From IMG/VR virus record IMGVR_UViG_3300027704_000023: DNA of 20,000 bases; one strand, written 5' to 3'. This DNA comes from an uncultured virus (IMG/VR IMGVR_UViG_3300027704_000023) (Duplodnaviria; Heunggongvirae; Uroviricota; Caudoviricetes; Crassvirales). Below are positions 1,746 through 14,691 of this stretch, piece by piece; positions within the stretch are counted from its first letter, which is position 1, and each line of letters begins with the position of its first letter. Position numbers and translations under genes: made by a program. Under the pieces are notes generated by a model that made no database searches, had not been told where the DNA came from, and was given only the letters and a program-made list of their open reading frames with translations.

Positions 1746-3397
1746 TGGCTAATTACAATTACGTAGCACCTATACAGTACAAGAGTTATTCAGATATGAA
1801 TAAAGAGCGCCTTGCTGCGAAAGCGGCTCAAGAGGCGGCTGGTCTTAAGCAAAAATCTGCAATCGATACACGTAAGCAGAAGTTTTACGATAAGATGACA
1901 GGGTATAAAACGGCTGGTTGGGCGGATTATCATAGAAATGAATATGACACGCTGATTAAAAGCGCTCTTTCTGAGGTGTCTTTAAGCCCAAATCCTGATT
2001 ACGGTGGTATGTCTGATGCTATTATGCGCATGCAAGAGATGGGAGATAACCACGCAAGGTTAAGAGACGGGCAGACTGAATACAACTCCTATATGGGGGA
2101 GAACGCACCTAACTACGATGCTGATTTAGATTGGGGTATGAGTGCTACTCACGATACATTAGGGTACGATAAAAGGCTTACGACGTTTAACACTTTAGGG
2201 TTGTTAAACTATAGTAACGGAAGGGGAGATTTCCCTAACCCAAGCTACGACCCTTCAGCTGAAGAGGGCACATCGGGGAGTTTTAAATCTATGCGGGATT
2301 TACTTAATAGTAAAGGTGTAGATATACAGATGTCTAATGGACGGGAGGTTTACGCTGATGAAGACGGTCAATTAAAACCAATTAGCGGGAGCGCTTTTGA
2401 TGTAGCTACGGAACAGTTCTCTGGGTTATGGAACCCTACCTTGAGCGCTATTGATAATATAACCGCTGAGGATGCCTTTTTTGGTTACTCCAACATACCA
2501 GGGGGAAAAGCTAAATTTGAAAATCACGCCAATACTTTAAATAATCAAGTGGGTGATAAGGAGGTTACTTATGAAGCTGCTAAAGAAAACTTAAAGGCGG
2601 ATATATTAAACTACGTCGATCCTAATGGAGTGAGTCCAGATAAGTCTCTTATATCCTCTGCTATAACAGCTTACGAAAAGAAACACAACCAAACTTGGAA
2701 TGATATTAAAGATAATGATGCCTTATTATTAACTTACGGGACTCCATGGGAGTTTTTTGCTGATCAAATGGTAGCTGTAGCTAACCTTGATGACCCAGAC
2801 AGCCCGTCAGGTGGAAGTATGAGCGAGTCTATGAGACAAAAATGGGCGGCTTTTTATAGTAAACCTTTAGACATCCCTAACACAAAGTTCACAAGAACGC
2901 CAGTAGGTACAGAAGGGTACAATTGGGAGAAAGCTTTAGAGTACTTTGAAGAAAAAGATGTAGATGTATCTGAAATAGTAGGGCGTATAGATGAAGTTGA
3001 CGAGTTCGGAAATATTACAGGAACTAAAATAGGACTTAAAGAAGATTTAGGGGAGGGTGTTAGAATAGGTATGGGGCAAGCAGATTTAAAGTATGATAAT
3101 GTGCCTGTTCAATCAATAGAAATATTTGATGAAAAGAATATAGTTGTAGTATATGCTAGTGAATACATTCTAGGTAATATTGGTGTACCTGCAGGAGAAG
3201 AAGGTGACCCATGGAGATATAATCCATTATTCGGGGGAAGAGTAGGTGTTGCTCCTTACAGGATAATAAACCTAACAAATCCAGATGGTAGCGAGCATGA
3301 CGATATGGAAACTCTAAGGAACCAATTTCGAAGAACTTACGGAGGAATCGACCCTCTTCAACAAAAAATTATAGAAGCAGAACAAGCTAGAGAGTAA
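1745..3397 (+). CDS. Putative internal virion/ejection protein, 550 aa
   Basis: Long ORF coupled by TAATG overlaps at both ends; N-terminal coiled coil (AAKAAQEAA); middle gene of a three-gene block. Confidence 0.5.
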   Translation: MANYNYVAPIQYKSYSDMNKERLAAKAAQEAAGLKQKSAIDTRKQKFYDKMTGYKTAGWADYHRNEYDTLIKSALSEVSLSPNPDYGGMSDAIMRMQEMGDNHARLRDGQTEYNSYMGENAPNYDADLDWGMSATHDTLGYDKRLTTFNTLGLLNYSNGRGDFPNPSYDPSAEEGTSGSFKSMRDLLNSKGVDIQMSNGREVYADEDGQLKPISGSAFDVATEQFSGLWNPTLSAIDNITAEDAFFGYSNIPGGKAKFENHANTLNNQVGDKEVTYEAAKENLKADILNYVDPNGVSPDKSLISSAITAYEKKHNQTWNDIKDNDALLLTYGTPWEFFADQMVAVANLDDPDSPSGGSMSESMRQKWAAFYSKPLDIPNTKFTRTPVGTEGYNWEKALEYFEEKDVDVSEIVGRIDEVDEFGNITGTKIGLKEDLGEGVRIGMGQADLKYDNVPVQSIEIFDEKNIVVVYASEYILGNIGVPAGEEGDPWRYNPLFGGRVGVAPYRIINLTNPDGSEHDDMETLRNQFRRTYGGIDPLQQKIIEAEQARE

Positions 3398-6300
3398 TGC
3401 CACATATAGAAGAACACATAGAAGAACCACAGGTTCAAGGAGATCCACAAGGATTAGACTATCAAGCTATATATCAGAAGTACTACGATAAAGGCTTTGA
3501 TATAGAGAAAGCTACTAGGAAGATGCGTGTATTGTACGGTGCTAAGCAGCCTGAACTTGATGCGTTAAATACTTTCTATGAGAGTAAAAAAAAAAGTCAA
3601 GACGGTACTACAGCATCGGACTCCAGTTCGGAAGCGGTTTCTACGGTATCTACCTCAGGTACAGCTACTTCGACAGGGCAAGAGAATGGAGATACGGATT
3701 CTACTTTAGCCGCTCCTGAACCTTTATCCCCTGAATTATACGATAGTATAAACCCTACTCCTTTACCAAGGACACTAGTGCATTTAGAGCAGGCTGAAAT
3801 AATAGGTAGAGGGAGACCAGAGAACTGGAAAGATATATATAGAAGTCAGTTTGGGGAGGGGGAAATTTATCAGCTAAAAACAGATAAGATATTCTCTGAG
3901 CAGAGAGATCAAAGTCTTATGGCTTCTTTGAATGCTATCGAGGCGGATTCTTTCAATAGGTGGTACAATAAAAAATTAGAGAACGGTAGGACTAAAACAT
4001 TAGTTGATCAGTATTTAAACTTAGATACAGAAAAAGCTAAAGATCTTAAGAGAAGGCTTTCAAACGATCTCGTTAATAAATATAGCATAAAAGGCGACAT
4101 CATGGATATGCTTGCTTCTCTAGAGGATGCTCCTGAGGGTCAGCTAACTCACCCAGGGTTTGTAAGGAAGTACCAGCTTGGAGTAGACGAAACATCAAAA
4201 AAGTCCTTAAAAAAAATAGAGAACGACTTCGGGAATTTCTATAGAGATATGGTAAAGGCTTCTTTACCTTATAGTGTTCAGAAGAGCGAGAGTCAACTCA
4301 AAGACTTAGAGTATTACTTTAAGTACGGTAATGGAGATCTGTTTGATTTTACTGAAGATGGAGAGATAGGTAATCAAACGTGGTGGAGCCAGAATCAACT
4401 TAGTGCTGAGGTAGCTGGGATGACCTTAGTTAATAAAGTAGTCTTCTTGGGGAGTAGAGTCGGTGGGTGGATGGCAGATTTAGTGGATTCAGATAAGAAT
4501 GTTAACCGTATGTCTGGTGTTATGGGGGATGCTGTAAGAAGCGCTGCAGACACTAACATAGAAAAAAGAGAAAAGTCTTTAGAGGAGATTAGAGGGAGGA
4601 TGAATACTTTTGAAGAGGGAATATCTAAAAGTTACGGGGAGTTTTTTACAACAGGAAATCTTACGTCTTTAAACAACGCTCTAGAACAGTCTTGGTATAT
4701 GACTGTAGAGGCCGCGCCTCAAATAGGTTTGGCTGTAGCGGCTGGGGCTATGGGGATGGGACCAACAGGTATTGCTTTACTCTTAACTGCTGACGGGACA
4801 GCGCAGGAAGCTATGATGATAAGGAATGACATATCCTTTGATGACTTCGTAAAACCAGAAAGCGTACCCAAGATTGAAAAGATTAAAGAGAAGATTGATA
4901 GGATCTTAAAAATAAGAGAAGGAGAGATTGATCTTCCTTTTGCTTCAGGGGATATAGAGGGTGACATGAAGACTAGAGAGAACTATCAAGCGAAGGAATT
5001 ACAAACGTTAAGGGAATTTCTTAGAAAAGAAATCAGAGAATCTAAGCTGAGTTACGATGAAGCTATATCTACTATAGAGATTTCCGAAGGTGACACTCAA
5101 GAAGATGTAGAGAATAAGCTTAAAGCAAAGTACAATATAGAACTCAACAATTCTAATAGAACGATGTACTTAAGTAGTACGGCTGCTGTAGATTTTGCTG
5201 CGGATAGAATTATGTTCGGGATATTTAGACGAGCGTTTAGAGGTGCTGACTTTGGACAGGATGCCACTATAAAAACCTACGCTAAAAACATCCTTAGAGG
5301 ATCAGGCATAGCATTACCAGAATCTGCTATACCTACATTTCTTAGTGTGTTAAACAGAGAGTACCAAAAGTCTGAATATACTGACTCGGATTTCGATTCA
5401 CAACAAGCTTTTGAAGCATCGTTAGATGCAACGTTAGGAACTATTCTTTTAGGGCCAGGTATGCACACTGCAGGTAGTTCATTAGCTTATACAAAACATC
5501 TAGGGAGGTCTAGAATTGGACCAGATGGTACGAATGTTTATCACCGTAGAATAATTGATGAGTTAAATAAAAAGGCTTCAGATCCTGATATTAATTCTAA
5601 AGACCGAGAGCAGGCTATAAAACTTGCAGCGAAGTTTAAGAAGGACGGGGTGTTAATCTTTGAGAAGAACACAGCTCTATATGATTATATAGGTAAGAAA
5701 GATCCAGCTTCGTTAGACGAGATAGCTAATCTTCACCTTCAAGCTGAAAGCCTTCTTAGAAGCTTAAAGGGGGTAGAGGACCCTAACATTAAAATCCTAA
5801 TGAGAGATGAACTTGCTAGTATAATAAGCAGAAAATCCAAAATAGAAGCAGAGTTTAAAGAAGGCTTTGAGGCTCAGTACGACCATAGCTATGTACGTCA
5901 GAAGTTTGAGGATGGAAAAAAAGGGATAGTGGAAGTTAAACCTGACGAACCTACAGTTAAAGCTGACGAACCAGATGCCGATCCATTAGTTAAACCTGAT
6001 GATAGTGAGCCGTTATCTAAGTCTAAAGAGCCTCAAGAAGGCGATGCACGAATGGGTGACGATACAGAGGGTGTTGTAGCAGAAGAAAGAAAGTTATCAG
6101 ATATTAAAGGTGGTAGAGTAAGACAGTTTCTTAGAGACACCTTCAGAAGCGATTCTGGGATAGGAGGAAATAGAGGTTTAAAGTTCTGGAGAAGAAGATC
6201 AGGGGCAAGAGAAAAAGTTGCTGAGACTATTCGTGGTAGAGAAAGAGAGATGAGGGTCATGACTAATCAATTAGGTTTAGACCTTGGGGTTTTAGACGCT

Positions 6301-8982
6301 TTGTATAAAAACTCTGAGTTTGATGTGAATACAGATAGCAAGGGGAATAGGAGAAAAGTAGGTAAGAATGAGTACGATAGGCGTAAAGCAGAGTTAAACA
6401 AATACATGAATGGGGAGGAGGCTCGTATAGCGTTTTTAAGCGATGAAGGGAAGGCTAAGTTGGATTTCCTAAGGGCTAAGGTAGATGGCCTGTCTGGAGA
6501 GATGATAAGGCTCTTAGAAGAGAACCCTACAGATAAAAACAAAGCCTTAGTAGAGACTATTAGAAATAATCAAGGGCAGTACCTTAAAAGAAGTTATGAA
6601 GCCTTTACTGATAACGGAACTTGGATAAAGGATTTTAATAAAAAGAAGCTTTCTAAAACAAAGCAAAAATTGTACGATGATGCGGTGCAGTTTGTTATGG
6701 ACAGCAAAGGTGTAGACCGCCAAAAAGCTAAAGTAGAGGTAAAATCGTATCTTCAAGATCTATACAGTAAGCTAAACGATAAAAGTTTTATCGCGGGTTC
6801 TGGTTTGATTGGGGCTTTAGATTCTAAAGTCTTAAGCGGTAGAAAAGATATACCTGAGCCTTTTAGAAAACTATTAGGGGAGGTCGATAATGTTAGTTTT
6901 AACTACGTAAATACAGTGCACAGATTAGCGGGGTATGTAGCAGACCTTTCTTTTCAGAAAATTTTAAGGTCAGACCTTATTGAAGCAGGGTTAGCTATAG
7001 AAGGTAAAGGGAAAGAGGGTGTACCTTTTCTTACTGGATCGAAATTTAGCGGTTTAGATGGGTTATTTGTAGACCCAGCTTTTCAAGCTATGTATGAAGG
7101 TATGATGCCTTTAACGTCAAACCCTAGTAAATTCTGGAGGATTATGACAGGAATTCAAGGTGTAGTAAAAATTGGTAAGACGGTATACTCTCCTACTACG
7201 ACTTCTAGAAACCTTTTAAGTGGGGTGTTTTTGGGTTTCAACTCAGGTCATTTCTTTGGGACTAATCCCGACATGATAAATCAAGCATCAAAAATAGCTT
7301 GGGGTGTGGAAGAAGGAATAGATATTAATCCCATGACTAGAGAAAGAGATAAACTTATGAGATATGGCATCATAGGTGATGGAGCTAGATCAGGGGAAAT
7401 TATGAGCTTGATGCGCGACTTTACTGACGCTACAGAAGCGCAAAGAATAGCAAAAAAATCTGGGGGAAGTAAATTTAGAAAAGCCGTTAGAAATACCAAT
7501 GAGGCTTCTCAAAAATTATATGCTTACGGTGATGACTTTTACAAAACAGCTGGATTTTACATAGAGACTCAGAGATTTATAGATAGCGGGATGGATAGAG
7601 CTGTAGCAGAGAAAAGAGCTGCAGAAAGGATTCGTGGAGGTTACCCAACATATTCCTATATACCTAAAAATATAAAATGGTTAAGACGATTTCCTCTTAC
7701 GGGTATGTTTGTCTCTTTCCCTTACGAAGTATACAGAACTACCGCAAACAACATGAGGTATGCAGCGCAAGATTTAGCTGAAGGGCGTACTACAATGGGG
7801 ATGAAAAGGATGCTAGGGATGACAACGGCGTCAGCTTTTGGATTCGGTATGTTTAGTGCTACAAAAGATTTATTTGACTATACTGAAGAGGAACTTGATG
7901 CAATAAGGATTTTAGGGCCAGATTACCAAGCTAATTCACAACCTATTTTTTTACCTAGGGGAGAGGCAAACGAGATAAAATTTATAGACGCTCAAGCGAT
8001 ACTACCAAATGAGGCTATATGGAAACCTATAAGATCTTTAATATTACAAGGAGACCCTAAGGATGAAGGGTACCTGGACGGTATAGAATCAGCTATATTC
8101 GAGGTCCTTTCTCCAGCTATATCTAAAGACGCTACAGCTAAATTAATTCATGAGTTAATGACTAATAGAAGAGAAGGTAGCGATCAGCCTATATATTATT
8201 GGGATCAAGATTTAAACCCTTTAGAGAACGCTTTAAATAACATACCTGATTTAGGTAGACAGATATTAAAAGGTGTAGGTCCAGGAGCTTATAATAACTT
8301 AGAGGAGTTTTTTAGAGCTAACGATATTGCGCCTGAGGTGTTCGGGGAGAAGTCTACAGTATATAAAGAGACTAAAATGAATGAGTGGATACTTGGATTA
8401 TTCGGTTTCCGTGTAAACACGTTTGATATGAGAGCGGGGATATTACCTAAGATATACGAGGATAGCGAGGATCTTAAGGATTTCACTAACTTCAACTTAA
8501 GTAACAAAGACATAAGGTTACTATCTGATAAACCTATAGAGTATTTAAAAAAGAAAGCTGATCGATACGTAAATAAACAAATACAAGTAGCGAAAAGGGT
8601 TCAACTTTACCCTAGCGTAGCTATAGAGGCTGGGCTTGATCAAGGTGAATTAATAAAAACGTTAGTAAATAGCGGTCTCTCAAAAAAGAACGCAGGTATA
8701 CTCATAGCTAACGCTATAGAAGGTACAAACTTACCTCAGAACCCGAAGTACATAACTCTTAGTCGTATAAAAAGTGTATTAACATCTGTGGAAAACGCTC
8801 ACAGGGGGACCAAAGCAGAGTTAAAAGAAAAAACAGACGCAGTTATGGAGGCTATGTTCTTATCTAACGTAATGATTATAGAGAAATGGTCTGAGCAATT
8901 CGAGGACTACGACATAAAAAATGACGAAGAGGAAGACAATCAAGATTTCCGTGGACAGTATTTAAACGAAAACAAACCATGA
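3397..8982 (+). CDS. Large internal virion/DNA ejection protein, 1861 aa
   Basis: Largest ORF, last before the holin. Hydrophobic Gly/Ala segments (PQIGLAVAAGAMGMGPTGIALLL); C-half motifs KTVYSPTTTSRN, YAYGDDFYK and YPTYSYIP...LRRFPLTGMFVSFPYE typical of large podovirus ejection proteins. Confidence 0.65.
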   Translation: MPHIEEHIEEPQVQGDPQGLDYQAIYQKYYDKGFDIEKATRKMRVLYGAKQPELDALNTFYESKKKSQDGTTASDSSSEAVSTVSTSGTATSTGQENGDTDSTLAAPEPLSPELYDSINPTPLPRTLVHLEQAEIIGRGRPENWKDIYRSQFGEGEIYQLKTDKIFSEQRDQSLMASLNAIEADSFNRWYNKKLENGRTKTLVDQYLNLDTEKAKDLKRRLSNDLVNKYSIKGDIMDMLASLEDAPEGQLTHPGFVRKYQLGVDETSKKSLKKIENDFGNFYRDMVKASLPYSVQKSESQLKDLEYYFKYGNGDLFDFTEDGEIGNQTWWSQNQLSAEVAGMTLVNKVVFLGSRVGGWMADLVDSDKNVNRMSGVMGDAVRSAADTNIEKREKSLEEIRGRMNTFEEGISKSYGEFFTTGNLTSLNNALEQSWYMTVEAAPQIGLAVAAGAMGMGPTGIALLLTADGTAQEAMMIRNDISFDDFVKPESVPKIEKIKEKIDRILKIREGEIDLPFASGDIEGDMKTRENYQAKELQTLREFLRKEIRESKLSYDEAISTIEISEGDTQEDVENKLKAKYNIELNNSNRTMYLSSTAAVDFAADRIMFGIFRRAFRGADFGQDATIKTYAKNILRGSGIALPESAIPTFLSVLNREYQKSEYTDSDFDSQQAFEASLDATLGTILLGPGMHTAGSSLAYTKHLGRSRIGPDGTNVYHRRIIDELNKKASDPDINSKDREQAIKLAAKFKKDGVLIFEKNTALYDYIGKKDPASLDEIANLHLQAESLLRSLKGVEDPNIKILMRDELASIISRKSKIEAEFKEGFEAQYDHSYVRQKFEDGKKGIVEVKPDEPTVKADEPDADPLVKPDDSEPLSKSKEPQEGDARMGDDTEGVVAEERKLSDIKGGRVRQFLRDTFRSDSGIGGNRGLKFWRRRSGAREKVAETIRGREREMRVMTNQLGLDLGVLDALYKNSEFDVNTDSKGNRRKVGKNEYDRRKAELNKYMNGEEARIAFLSDEGKAKLDFLRAKVDGLSGEMIRLLEENPTDKNKALVETIRNNQGQYLKRSYEAFTDNGTWIKDFNKKKLSKTKQKLYDDAVQFVMDSKGVDRQKAKVEVKSYLQDLYSKLNDKSFIAGSGLIGALDSKVLSGRKDIPEPFRKLLGEVDNVSFNYVNTVHRLAGYVADLSFQKILRSDLIEAGLAIEGKGKEGVPFLTGSKFSGLDGLFVDPAFQAMYEGMMPLTSNPSKFWRIMTGIQGVVKIGKTVYSPTTTSRNLLSGVFLGFNSGHFFGTNPDMINQASKIAWGVEEGIDINPMTRERDKLMRYGIIGDGARSGEIMSLMRDFTDATEAQRIAKKSGGSKFRKAVRNTNEASQKLYAYGDDFYKTAGFYIETQRFIDSGMDRAVAEKRAAERIRGGYPTYSYIPKNIKWLRRFPLTGMFVSFPYEVYRTTANNMRYAAQDLAEGRTTMGMKRMLGMTTASAFGFGMFSATKDLFDYTEEELDAIRILGPDYQANSQPIFLPRGEANEIKFIDAQAILPNEAIWKPIRSLILQGDPKDEGYLDGIESAIFEVLSPAISKDATAKLIHELMTNRREGSDQPIYYWDQDLNPLENALNNIPDLGRQILKGVGPGAYNNLEEFFRANDIAPEVFGEKSTVYKETKMNEWILGLFGFRVNTFDMRAGILPKIYEDSEDLKDFTNFNLSNKDIRLLSDKPIEYLKKKADRYVNKQIQVAKRVQLYPSVAIEAGLDQGELIKTLVNSGLSKKNAGILIANAIEGTNLPQNPKYITLSRIKSVLTSVENAHRGTKAELKEKTDAVMEAMFLSNVMIIEKWSEQFEDYDIKNDEEEDNQDFRGQYLNENKP
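3586..3719 (+). other. A10 slippery run with overlapping -1 frame ORF (candidate recoding site)
   Basis: A10 at 3586-3595; the -1 frame has TAA at 3585-3587, then is open through the run and for 41 codons (3594-3716) to TGA 3717-3719. Confidence 0.45.
5935..6003 (+). repeat. Short imperfect in-frame repeats encoding VKPDEP/VKADEP/VKPDD linker
   Basis: gttaaacctgacgaacc, gttaaagctgacgaacc and gttaaacctgatga within a P/D/E-rich linker. Confidence 0.6.
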
Positions 8983-10502: not shown

Positions 10503-10701
10503 GTTCTTTGCATATTTCTCTTACTAGGTCTATCTCTATATTTACCCAGTCTCGAAAGGATTTAATTTGAATTAACACATCTTCAAGTTCAGTCAAAGCA
10601 TCCCCATCATCTTCATGTAGAGACTCATATAACATATCTGCTGCGTTATGAATCCTTTCACAAGCTTTAAAATATGTTTCGCTAACGGTACTATTGTTCA
10701 T
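10480..10701 (-). CDS. Hypothetical protein, 73 aa (acidic, helical)
   Basis: Tightly overlapping neighbours in the operon. Confidence 0.65.
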   Translation of the reverse strand: MNNSTVSETYFKACERIHNAADMLYESLHEDDGDALTELEDVLIQIKSFRDWVNIEIDLVREICKEHENDNPF

Positions 10702-11137
10702 TTTCCATGGATTTTTTTATCTCTAAGATGCATTGATCTACTTGAGCTTTATTTTTAGCCAAATATACATCATAACCTAGATTATTATCCATAATATGCT
10801 TTAAAAATATCTTCCACCTCATAGGAAAATCATGATGAGAAGGTAAATAACCTTTTGTTTCAATAATCCATTTGGAATCCTTTCCTACAAAGTCAGGTGT
10901 ATACCTAATAGGCTGTTGAACACTATTAGTCCTATCAGTCATAACCTTTTTTTTTGCGGTCATCTTAAAGTACTTATGTTCAAATCTAAAGGACTCCATT
11001 AAAACGAACTGCTGATCTTCATAAGAGAAAGCTATCCCAGCTTCATGTAACTTATCAGAACAATACTTCTCTATCGCACTAGCAAACTTCCCTAGCGATT
11101 TTTTTTTAGGTTTAGTTTTTCTTTTGTTTCTTTTCAT
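10691..11137 (-). CDS. T7 endonuclease I-like Holliday junction resolvase
   Basis: FASAIE...L...GIAFSYE...YTPDF...IIETKG motif. Confidence 0.75.
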   Translation of the reverse strand: MKRNKRKTKPKKKSLGKFASAIEKYCSDKLHEAGIAFSYEDQQFVLMESFRFEHKYFKMTAKKKVMTDRTNSVQQPIRYTPDFVGKDSKWIIETKGYLPSHHDFPMRWKIFLKHIMDNNLGYDVYLAKNKAQVDQCILEIKKSMENEQ

Positions 11138-13234: not shown

Positions 13235-13496
13235 CTAATGTTAGATTTGAATAGTTTAAAAAAAGTTTACTTGTTATACCCCTTATTATTATCTCTTTAT
13301 TTTTATTCTTACTCTTCTTACCGTAAGCTTCGTTAATCAACCTGTTCATAGTTCTTTTATCGTGCTTCATAATATCGTAAGGCTTATCATATATAGAGAC
13401 TATCCACGATGAACGCTCAGATACAATCTTATTTTTCTTATAAGCAATCTGAGCGTTCATGTAGTAGATAGGGGCCTTACTAGAACGGCATGTCAT
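13218..13496 (-). CDS. Hypothetical basic protein, 92 aa
   Basis: ORF overlapping both neighbours in the operon. Confidence 0.6.
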   Translation of the reverse strand: MTCRSSKAPIYYMNAQIAYKKNKIVSERSSWIVSIYDKPYDIMKHDKRTMNRLINEAYGKKSKNKNKEIIIRGITSKLFLNYSNLTLDEHQG

Positions 13497-13785
13497 CCGT
13501 TACAGCAGCTTCAGCTTTAGCTTGCTTTGCAGCTCGCTTCTCCTTAGCACCCTCACTATTCGGATCAAACACCGAACAACAAGCTTTCCCGCTCTTAGCC
13601 ATAAATAGCTTGAGATAGATGTTACCACCTTCTCCTGCGTCGTTACGCCTAGTAGCGTACTTGTCAATCATTTCTTTCAACTCGGTATCCTTAATACGGA
13701 CACTCCAACTAGAAAGCTCTCCCTCGAACATACGAGGCTCATCTGCGTACCCTACGAGTACTGAATCATATTTTACATCACTCAT
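13480..13785 (-). CDS. Putative single-stranded DNA-binding protein
   Basis: Small beta-rich protein ending in the acidic-aromatic tail DDMPF; located in the recombination/replication block. Confidence 0.55.
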   Translation of the reverse strand: MSDVKYDSVLVGYADEPRMFEGELSSWSVRIKDTELKEMIDKYATRRNDAGEGGNIYLKLFMAKSGKACCSVFDPNSEGAKEKRAAKQAKAEAAVTDDMPF

Positions 13786-13805: not shown

Positions 13806-13904
13806 TTAGAAAAAAAAAGTATAATATAAACCTGTAACCAAACTGAATATACCCATCACATAAAAAAAGATGTGACTTAGTATCTCTATTATTTTACAGA
13901 ACAT
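13806..13904 (-). CDS. Small hydrophobic single-TM peptide, 32 aa (MFCKIIEILSHIFFYVMGIFSLVTGLYYTFFF)
   Basis: Manually translated; starts 4 nt after the exonuclease stop and fills the gap; below the ORF-track cutoff. Confidence 0.4.
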   Translation of the reverse strand: MFCKIIEILSHIFFYVMGIFSLVTGLYYTFFF

Positions 13905-13908
13905 CTAC

Positions 13909-14691
13909 CTAAACAGTAAATGACGCATAGCAATTAAGCTCTGGCGTCTCCTTGTCTAGGTAAGACTTTATATTCTCCAGGGCTTGATGAAACTTCATCT
14001 CACCCCTGAACAGGGTTTCCTCCGAGCATTTAATCTCTGCTGGGTAGTATGGGTACGTCTTCTCTTGAACTACCCAATAGTAGTCCTTGATATCAAATAC
14101 CTTTGTATATATATATGCTTGTATATCGTAGCTGAAACTATTCACATCGTAACGAAACTTATCTACGCTTCGTGAGCTCTTACTGTCTGTGATGAATCCG
14201 TCACCTAAGCAATCTAAGAACCCTCTTAAAGGAACGCCTTCAAGGTCTTCATTGAACTCAACTTGATATTTACCTTTGAGTCTTTTCTCAAGTAAACCAG
14301 ATATAGCTAGTCTCTCAACCATATCGTTAGCAGTCTTCCAGTCCGCAGCGGAAGCAAGGGTTTTTCCTTCTTCTTTGTAAGACTCTTCTATTTTCGCCTT
14401 GATCTCTTTATAGTCCTTTGTTAAATGCGGGGACTTAGACTCCAAGGTTTTGCTTTGGCACTTAGATAAGACTTCATCTTCATCAAGCACTACGTATTCT
14501 TTCAAGGCCTTCTCACGCTCAAACAACAGCATGTCGTACATGGTCCCGAATACTAAGGCATCAGAAGTATATTTAGCTTGACCTTTCATCTTCATCTCCC
14601 ACATCTGCATGTCTCCTAGAGCATACTTTATAGAGGAGTAAGAGAGGTGTCCCTTACCAGTCGCGGCTGTTAGTTGTTCTCTTAAAGTCAT
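13909..14691 (-). CDS. RecE/exonuclease VIII-like PD-(D/E)XK exonuclease (DUF3799-like)
   Basis: LSYSSIK...ALVFGT...QVEF...LRGFLD...DSKSS...YDIQAYIY...VVQEK motif series. Confidence 0.75.
   Translation of the reverse strand: MTLREQLTAATGKGHLSYSSIKYALGDMQMWEMKMKGQAKYTSDALVFGTMYDMLLFEREKALKEYVVLDEDEVLSKCQSKTLESKSPHLTKDYKEIKAKIEESYKEEGKTLASAADWKTANDMVERLAISGLLEKRLKGKYQVEFNEDLEGVPLRGFLDCLGDGFITDSKSSRSVDKFRYDVNSFSYDIQAYIYTKVFDIKDYYWVVQEKTYPYYPAEIKCSEETLFRGEMKFHQALENIKSYLDKETPELNCYASFTV

Follow-up and report, generated by a model that had tools for sequence, protein, structure and literature searches.

The stretch of DNA analysed here (the window) comprises 20,000 nucleotides (nt) of an uncultured virus, IMG/VR record IMGVR_UViG_3300027704_000023. 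Its plus strand carries the gene of a giant virion structural protein of 1861 amino acids (aa), located at 3397..8982 and recognised from the list of open reading frames (ORFs), from its translation and from a match to the profile phrog_22602. This profile, named "virion structural protein", matches residues 894-1763 with an E-value of 1.4e-128. The subject of the present work is a run of ten adenines (A10) near the 5' end of this gene, and the alternative reading frame that begins there. The run occupies 3586..3595 on the plus strand and makes up the lysine codons 64-66 (AAA AAA AAA) together with the first A of the following AGT. It is the longest homopolymer in the window. Lysine is encoded by 104 AAA and 50 AAG codons in the giant gene, and both of its other KKK triplets use AAG. 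The run is preceded by a small N-terminal domain (codons 1-63, 3397..3585, plus strand), which is acidic, would be common to a long and a short product, and has F60 and Y61 invariant in 24 proteins.

The -1 frame meets a TAA at 3585-3587, then reads KKKSRRYYSIGLQFGSGFYGIYLRYSYFDRAREWRYGFYFSRS and ends at a TGA stop at 3717-3719. It holds no ATG, GTG or TTG. Since it is closed by the upstream TAA and has no start codon, this frame is reachable only by recoding at the run. The resulting trans-frame ORF on the plus strand (3594..3719) has 41 codons (KSRR...FSRS) plus the stop, as given by its translation, and a -1 slip, or a messenger RNA with eleven adenines (A11), would give a product of 66 + 41 = 107 aa. 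Judging from the translation, the tail is very basic, its 45 residues carrying about 11 positive and 2 negative charges. Tyr, Phe, Trp and Gly are abundant in it, and it reads KSRR...GLQFGSGFYGIYLRY...EWRYGF.... In the frame-0 linker that overlaps it, TCG accounts for 3 of the 10 Ser codons, compared with 4% in the rest of the giant gene. The +1 frame, which would be the by-product frame of messages with nine (A9) or twelve (A12) adenines, is closed by a TAG at 3707..3709 (plus strand). Much of this had been pointed out in a first-pass annotation made from the sequence alone, and its description was accurate: the A10 lies at 3586-3595 in codons 64-66 of the 1861-aa gene, the -1 frame translates exactly as claimed, with the TAA at the 5' edge of the run and no ATG, the linker contains six NCG codons of which five give Gly in frame -1, and the +1 frame is open as far as the TAG at 3707-3709.

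Relatives of the giant gene were collected in two ways. A protein search using residues 1-400 of the giant protein returned 23 full-length homologs with 36-82% identity, and in all of these F60, Y61 and K64-K66 are invariant. A search for related loci using a single N-terminal protein gave no confirmed relative, whereas alignment-based scans succeeded and resulted in 32 viral and 38 metagenome loci (70 in total). Of the 70, 54 include the 5' end of an ORF encoding 900 aa or more, and the run counts given below refer to these 54. The first ~105 codons contain a run of exactly A10 in 39 loci and of A9 in three, which are records of Cellulophaga phages; 12 loci lack it (L015, L016, L019, L020, L022-L025, L029-L031 and L063). 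The loci lacking the run are the most distantly related (22-31% identity), and their N-termini are unrelated, which indicates that the slip-site module goes together with the layout of a small N-terminal domain followed by a Ser-rich linker. A motif scan of the six-frame translations of these 12 loci detected no separate tail-like gene. Likewise, the N-terminus differs, and the 5' region has no long run, in Pelagibacter phage HTVC027P, phage 023Pt_psg01 and Pseudoalteromonas phage vB_Pun_Y3.

The A10 is found in all three codon phases: 17 loci have it in phase 0 (xxT AAA AAA AAA Axx), 18 in phase 2 (xxA AAA AAA AAA Gxx) and four in phase 1 (GAA AAA AAA AAT, where the protein reads E-K-K-N). 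Because the A10 is kept in each of these phases, what is conserved is the ten-base nucleotide run and not the lysine triplet. A census of runs in 899,572 nt of the related loci counted 49 A8, 7 A9, 39 A10, 12 T9 and no T10, and every A10 (39 of 39) sits at the slip site. Immediately before the run, all 11 aligned relatives share the T at 3585, which in phase-0 loci supplies the first base of the TAA in the -1 frame. The bases upstream of the run vary among the aligned relatives. Homologs encoding the lysines by a mixture of AAG and AAA, named in the first-pass annotation as an outcome that would speak against slippage, were not found; despite deep divergence, 39 loci share a run of exactly A10.

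Selection on the overlapping frames was analysed in 12 non-redundant sequences of the clade to which the window belongs, including L018 and L021, whose giant proteins have only 28-29% identity. In a gap-free block of 102 nt, the entropy at the frame-0 codon positions 1, 2 and 3 was 0.69, 0.94 and 0.62, respectively. The least variable position is thus the wobble base of frame 0 and the most variable is position 2, that is, the wobble base of frame -1. In the same block the pooled pN/pS (the ratio of the proportions of nonsynonymous and synonymous differences) was 0.60 in frame -1, against 1.19 in frame 0 and 1.04 in frame +1. The third base of frame-0 codons is fixed even where the encoded residue changes, as exemplified by a column with GCG, ACG, GAG, GTG and CAG, and by the AAT, AGT, GGT, ACT, GCT, GAT or GTT preceding GGA, where the fixed third base keeps a Trp in frame -1.

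Comparison with the remainder of the giant gene places this signal at the overlap. The gene-wide fraction of identical codons among pairs with identical residues is 0.501 with a standard deviation (sd) of 0.072 (2146 windows of 34 codons), and windows in the overlap reach 0.82-0.88, about +5 sd, which is the strongest synonymous-site conservation of the gene. All of the top 11 windows begin at the run (alignment columns 63-76), as do 14 of the 15 top-scoring windows listed; the exception among these 15 (0.829) begins at column 94, 18 columns past the first run codon and inside the overlap. The zone of suppressed frame-0 synonymous change extends over 3583..3719 on the plus strand, with per-column codon identity close to 100% between the codon that precedes the run and approximately the -1 stop. 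Synonymous sites in the N-terminal domain (3397..3585) vary at an ordinary rate. Furthermore, of 62 gap-free windows along the gene, the overlap window is the only one in which pN/pS is lower in frame -1 (0.63) than in frame 0 (1.08), and its frame-0 pS is 0.31 compared with a gene median of 0.73. Synonymous-site suppression, a check proposed in the earlier annotation, is thus seen exactly over the overlap. As judged from these substitution patterns, an alternative-frame ORF that is reachable only through the run is under purifying selection in the window's clade.

The length and sequence of the -1 ORF are also kept, and randomly placed -1 stops, another outcome that had been anticipated as evidence against recoding, were not found. 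Past the run, the -1 ORF measures 37-43 codons in the window's clade, and three further groups of loci have 26-29, 33-37 and 14-17 codons, respectively. The encoded peptide is conserved, for instance in the pattern G-[LIV]-Q-F-G-x-G-F-Y-G-x-Y-L ... W-R-[FY]-G-F, and the alignment of trans-frame products has nine invariant columns in the tail against three in the N-terminal domain. In the other clades the recurring motifs are TTCGGAATC, encoding F-G-I, and TGG...TTCGG, encoding W-x-F-G-aromatic just before the -1 stop; more generally, W/Y-x-F-G-aromatic falls a few codons before that stop. A post-hoc scan for motifs in six-frame translations of all loci gave 18 matches, 15 of them at A10 sites and three by chance elsewhere.

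The openness of the frames was compared with that expected from codon choice by means of 5000 synonymous-codon re-draws per gene, following that gene's own codon usage, in 23 representatives. In the window, the -1 ORF extends 40 codons past the run, against a mean of 8.8 codons in the shuffled sequences (P = 0.011). Across the representatives the shuffled -1 ORFs had means of 2-19 codons, and the observed -1 ORF was longer than the shuffles at P <= 0.05 in 16 of 23, compared with 2 of 23 for the +1 frame. Since only these two reach P <= 0.05, the openness of the +1 frame is compositional, and this settles a caveat raised in the first-pass annotation, which had noted that the +1 frame is open as well: openness of +1 follows from composition, and openness of -1 needs particular codon choices.

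Taken together, these data suggest that the A10, close to the 5' end of the giant virion-protein gene, very probably acts as a conserved site of programmed slippage that gives a 107-aa isoform. They support the core of the interpretation in the first-pass annotation, whose further idea of beta strands in the tail that oligomerise or insert in the outer membrane is conjecture. The 1861-aa protein would arise from unslipped expression. In a certain share of cases the frame would move to -1 at the run, 41 more codons would be read, and translation would stop at 3717-3719. The short product of 107 aa would then consist of the shared N-terminal 66 residues and a basic, aromatic- and glycine-rich tail. 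The slippage itself, its level (transcript or ribosome) and the ratio of the long to the short product are inferred. As to function, it is a tentative guess that the short isoform enters the virion, or the same assembly site, by means of the shared N-terminal domain, and that its tail binds membrane or DNA.

A number of observations weigh against this interpretation. The frame-specific selection test is rigorous only in the window's own clade (12 sequences), and the shuffle test is non-significant in 7 of the 23 representatives. Pairwise substitution counts in other clades are mixed: L004/L006 [5,10,4] and L066/L067 [0,3,1] fit selection on frame -1, L007/L012 [9,10,8] has no period, and L005/L049 [3,5,8] and L013/L050 [2,5,10] look dominated by frame 0, with synonymous change still reduced (in L013/L050, third-position change amounts to 10/33 inside the overlap versus 25/40 after it). 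The records of Cellulophaga phages phi13:2, phi18:3 and phi19:3 (L009-L011 / L071) carry A9, and the gene is split in them. The first part is annotated as an 87-aa "structural protein" (gp126 in phi13:2), composed of the N-terminal domain and a tail in the +1 frame, and the second (gp127) as the giant protein from a later start. Two short database proteins, P0027 (99 aa, from a 47-kb contig) and P0029 (103 aa), have the same kind of composition, with the N-terminal domain, KKK and a +1 tail, which implies that they come from A9-type assemblies. The RNA data, presented below, are equivocal in that the contig carrying A11 is a single one of low depth, from a library that may hold DNA and with a reverse-transcription PCR step that slips on homopolymers, and in that another RNA contig, X20 (depth 3.8), has A10.

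The A9 records are either homopolymer undercalls or real A9 genomes. The Cellulophaga phage isolates were reportedly pyrosequenced. The conserved -1 motifs are still present in all three of the Cellulophaga phage records with A9, and if such genomes are real, production of the giant protein would depend on slippage.

Regarding the level at which the frame is shifted, RNA polymerase adding one A, to give an A11 message, is somewhat favoured as the main route. The RNA-DNA hybrid in RNA polymerase is 9-10 bp according to PMC5009743, and slippage by RNA polymerase is indicated because the run has an exact length, independent of codon phase, that is close to that of the hybrid. RNAalifold with 11 sequences detected no conserved RNA structure after the run (consensus -1.57 kcal/mol; eight predicted pairs, one with a compensatory change, in a stem starting ~28 nt past the run), in agreement with the earlier remark that no clear stimulatory hairpin was visible. 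The missing structure is compatible with a polymerase slip, since length-dependent slippage needs none. Within 3200-4000 no promoter-like site was found, and one weak terminator-like site lies at 3424-3436 on the minus strand, away from the run.

Public sequencing runs provided contigs only, covering small parts of the window. The run is covered in full, and with an additional A (A11), by X18, a metatranscriptome contig of 200 nt and depth 2.7; we regard this as a weak hint of slippage. The RNA contig X19 ends inside the run, and the DNA contig X4 spans it with A10. X4 stems from a co-occurring relative and joins the window sequence at 3611; before 3611 it has the A10 followed by different bases, and the same sample thus holds a variant in the first codons of the tail.

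The same 107-aa product could instead be made by ribosomes translating an unedited A10 message, either through a -1 shift on A_AAA_AAA or through sliding on poly(A) that encodes poly-lysine, as an alternative or an additional contributor. We consider this possible, and less likely than a shift at the level of the transcript. The slippery heptamer A_AAA_AAA is available in the right phase whether the run is in phase 0, 1 or 2, and -1 frameshifting is used by E. coli dnaX and phage lambda G/GT, as described in PMC5009743. However, seven to nine adenines would be enough for ribosomes, yet a length of exactly ten is seen in 39 of 39 metagenome and IMG/VR loci, regardless of phase; the conserved downstream structure is lacking, and one RNA contig carries A11. 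A different type of explanation is that replication slippage makes the run a contingency tract at the DNA level, so that A9, A10 and A11 genomes express different products. The A9 of the three Cellulophaga phage records, with their annotated gp126 and gp127, and the A9-type contigs implied by the +1 tails of P0027 and P0029 would fit such a tract. It is nevertheless improbable, given that 39 of the 42 run-bearing loci have A10 and none has A11, that an A9 genome would expose the unselected +1 tail and not the conserved -1 tail, that neither an A9 nor an A11 genome would encode the giant protein in frame, and that the A9 records may be undercalls.

Giant virion proteins are usually low-copy. 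The run might accordingly be imagined as a mere attenuator of expression, which reduces how much giant protein is made, with frameshifted peptides as waste and the -1 ORF as incidental, and the lack of selection on the +1 tail (pN/pS 1.04) would agree with that. This is very improbable in our view, as it leaves unexplained the purifying selection in frame -1, the conserved position of the stop, the avoidance of -1 stops, and the wobble bases that are invariant even where the frame-0 residue changes. That the conserved bases instead constitute a non-coding signal, such as an RNA structure or a protein-binding or packaging site, overlapping the linker by chance, is scarcely credible. Such a signal could account for strong nucleotide conservation over about 135 nt, but the conservation is three-periodic in phase with frame -1, an open frame is maintained, there is no consensus RNA structure, and 3200-4000 has no promoter-like site and a sole terminator-like site that lies on the other strand.

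The run in dnaX of Thermus thermophilus is nine bases long. Transcriptional slippage on that A run underlies the tau and gamma products, and the arrangement, as described in PMC5009743, resembles the one proposed here: one long ORF gives the full-length product, a polymerase slip on a long A run gives a truncated isoform with the same N-terminus, and RNA structure is not needed. In dnaX, which is a replicase gene, the alternative frames stop almost at once and encode no conserved peptide, whereas the site in the window lies in a phage virion protein gene and the trans-frame ORF of 27-43 codons is itself conserved. The potyvirus P3N-PIPO, as described in PMC5009743, is similar in having an ORF inside a large ORF, without a start of its own and reached by polymerase slippage at an A run, with suppressed synonymous change and an N-terminal part fused to a new tail. 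It differs in belonging to an RNA virus, with a viral RNA-dependent RNA polymerase and a short GA6 motif, while the present case would involve a double-stranded DNA phage, an A10 run and an unrelated protein.

In phage structural modules, conserved recoding that yields two products with a shared N-terminus is also known from gpG/gpGT of phage lambda and other tail-chaperone -1 frameshifts (PMC5009743). There, the ribosome slips near the 3' end of a short gene and the product is extended, unlike the slip near the 5' end of a giant gene that would shorten the product here, and the gene family is different. Poly-A tracts in large structural genes of injection machines, giving two length variants by slippage of the transcript, are described for tssM of Citrobacter rodentium (PMC4256274) and spa13 of Shigella (PMC5009743). 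Slippage in tssM rescues an interrupted gene, while frame 0 is intact in the window and the alternative frame has a conserved peptide of its own.

No description of the present slip site was found in the literature searched. If our interpretation holds, it would represent a recoding layout new to phage biology, in which a deeply conserved slip near the 5' end truncates a giant structural protein, and the overlapping ORF exposed by the slip is better conserved than the surrounding protein. The short product is missed entirely by gene callers, and A9-type records get a split gene, as seen in the Cellulophaga phages. The occurrence of exactly ten bases in all three codon phases would amount to a natural experiment on the length needed for polymerase slippage. 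The cultured Cellulophaga phages make the site directly testable, and the tail would be a new conserved peptide in abundant ocean phages. More speculatively, and with considerable doubt, the giant virion-protein gene of several marine phage families related to the Cellulophaga podoviruses may contain a PIPO-like hidden gene, read only through RNA-polymerase slippage on an A10 of hybrid length, whose basic tail, rich in Trp, Phe, Tyr and Gly and active on membrane or DNA, would be carried into the virion by the shared N-terminal domain, with recoding being obligatory in true A9 isolates.

The window is phage DNA. The gene following the giant gene matches a holin family, and the genes on the opposite strand are replication and recombination genes, including a primase-helicase with a BT4734-like N-terminal domain. 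Neither the giant protein nor the upstream genes had a sequence match in Pfam, NCBIfam or PDB, and the giant protein did not match any named ejection protein. Calling it an ejection protein would rely on its size, its position just before the holin gene and its podovirus relatives, and the only label that its profile match supports is "virion structural protein". A megablast of the giant gene against 50,697 phage records returned no match, and tblastn returned only nine distant records, all aligned over the C-terminal half. Among these are the Cellulophaga phages phi13:2, phi18:3 and phi19:3 (33% identity), a Pseudoalteromonas phage and a Pelagibacter phage. The record of phi13:2 is classified in Pachyviridae, a family of which one member is described in a paper as a podovirus of Flavobacteriia.

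Some of the related giant proteins differ in the middle. A close homolog of 2014-2016 aa (P0008/L033) has a mid-protein insertion of ~180 residues and a precomputed match of the protein to PF11697, and P0012 has a different insertion at the same place.

Further homopolymer runs were noticed at other positions. A second A9 is present in L033 at position 626 (codon ~191 of the giant gene), with stops in the alternative frames within 0-4 codons, and in L062 at position 1316 (codon ~37 of the giant gene), with stops within 19-24 codons. One T18 run occurs among the fetched loci L001-L070. In the window, a minus-strand gene for a 148-aa endonuclease-like protein (10691-11137) contains two T9 runs (10947-10955 and 11099-11107), which are A9 in the coding strand. 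They encode P-K-K-K-S and A-K-K-K-V and may be slippage-prone or plain lysine runs. Another A9 run (13810-13818) is located in the gap between the minus-strand ORFs 13480-13785 and 13909-14691.

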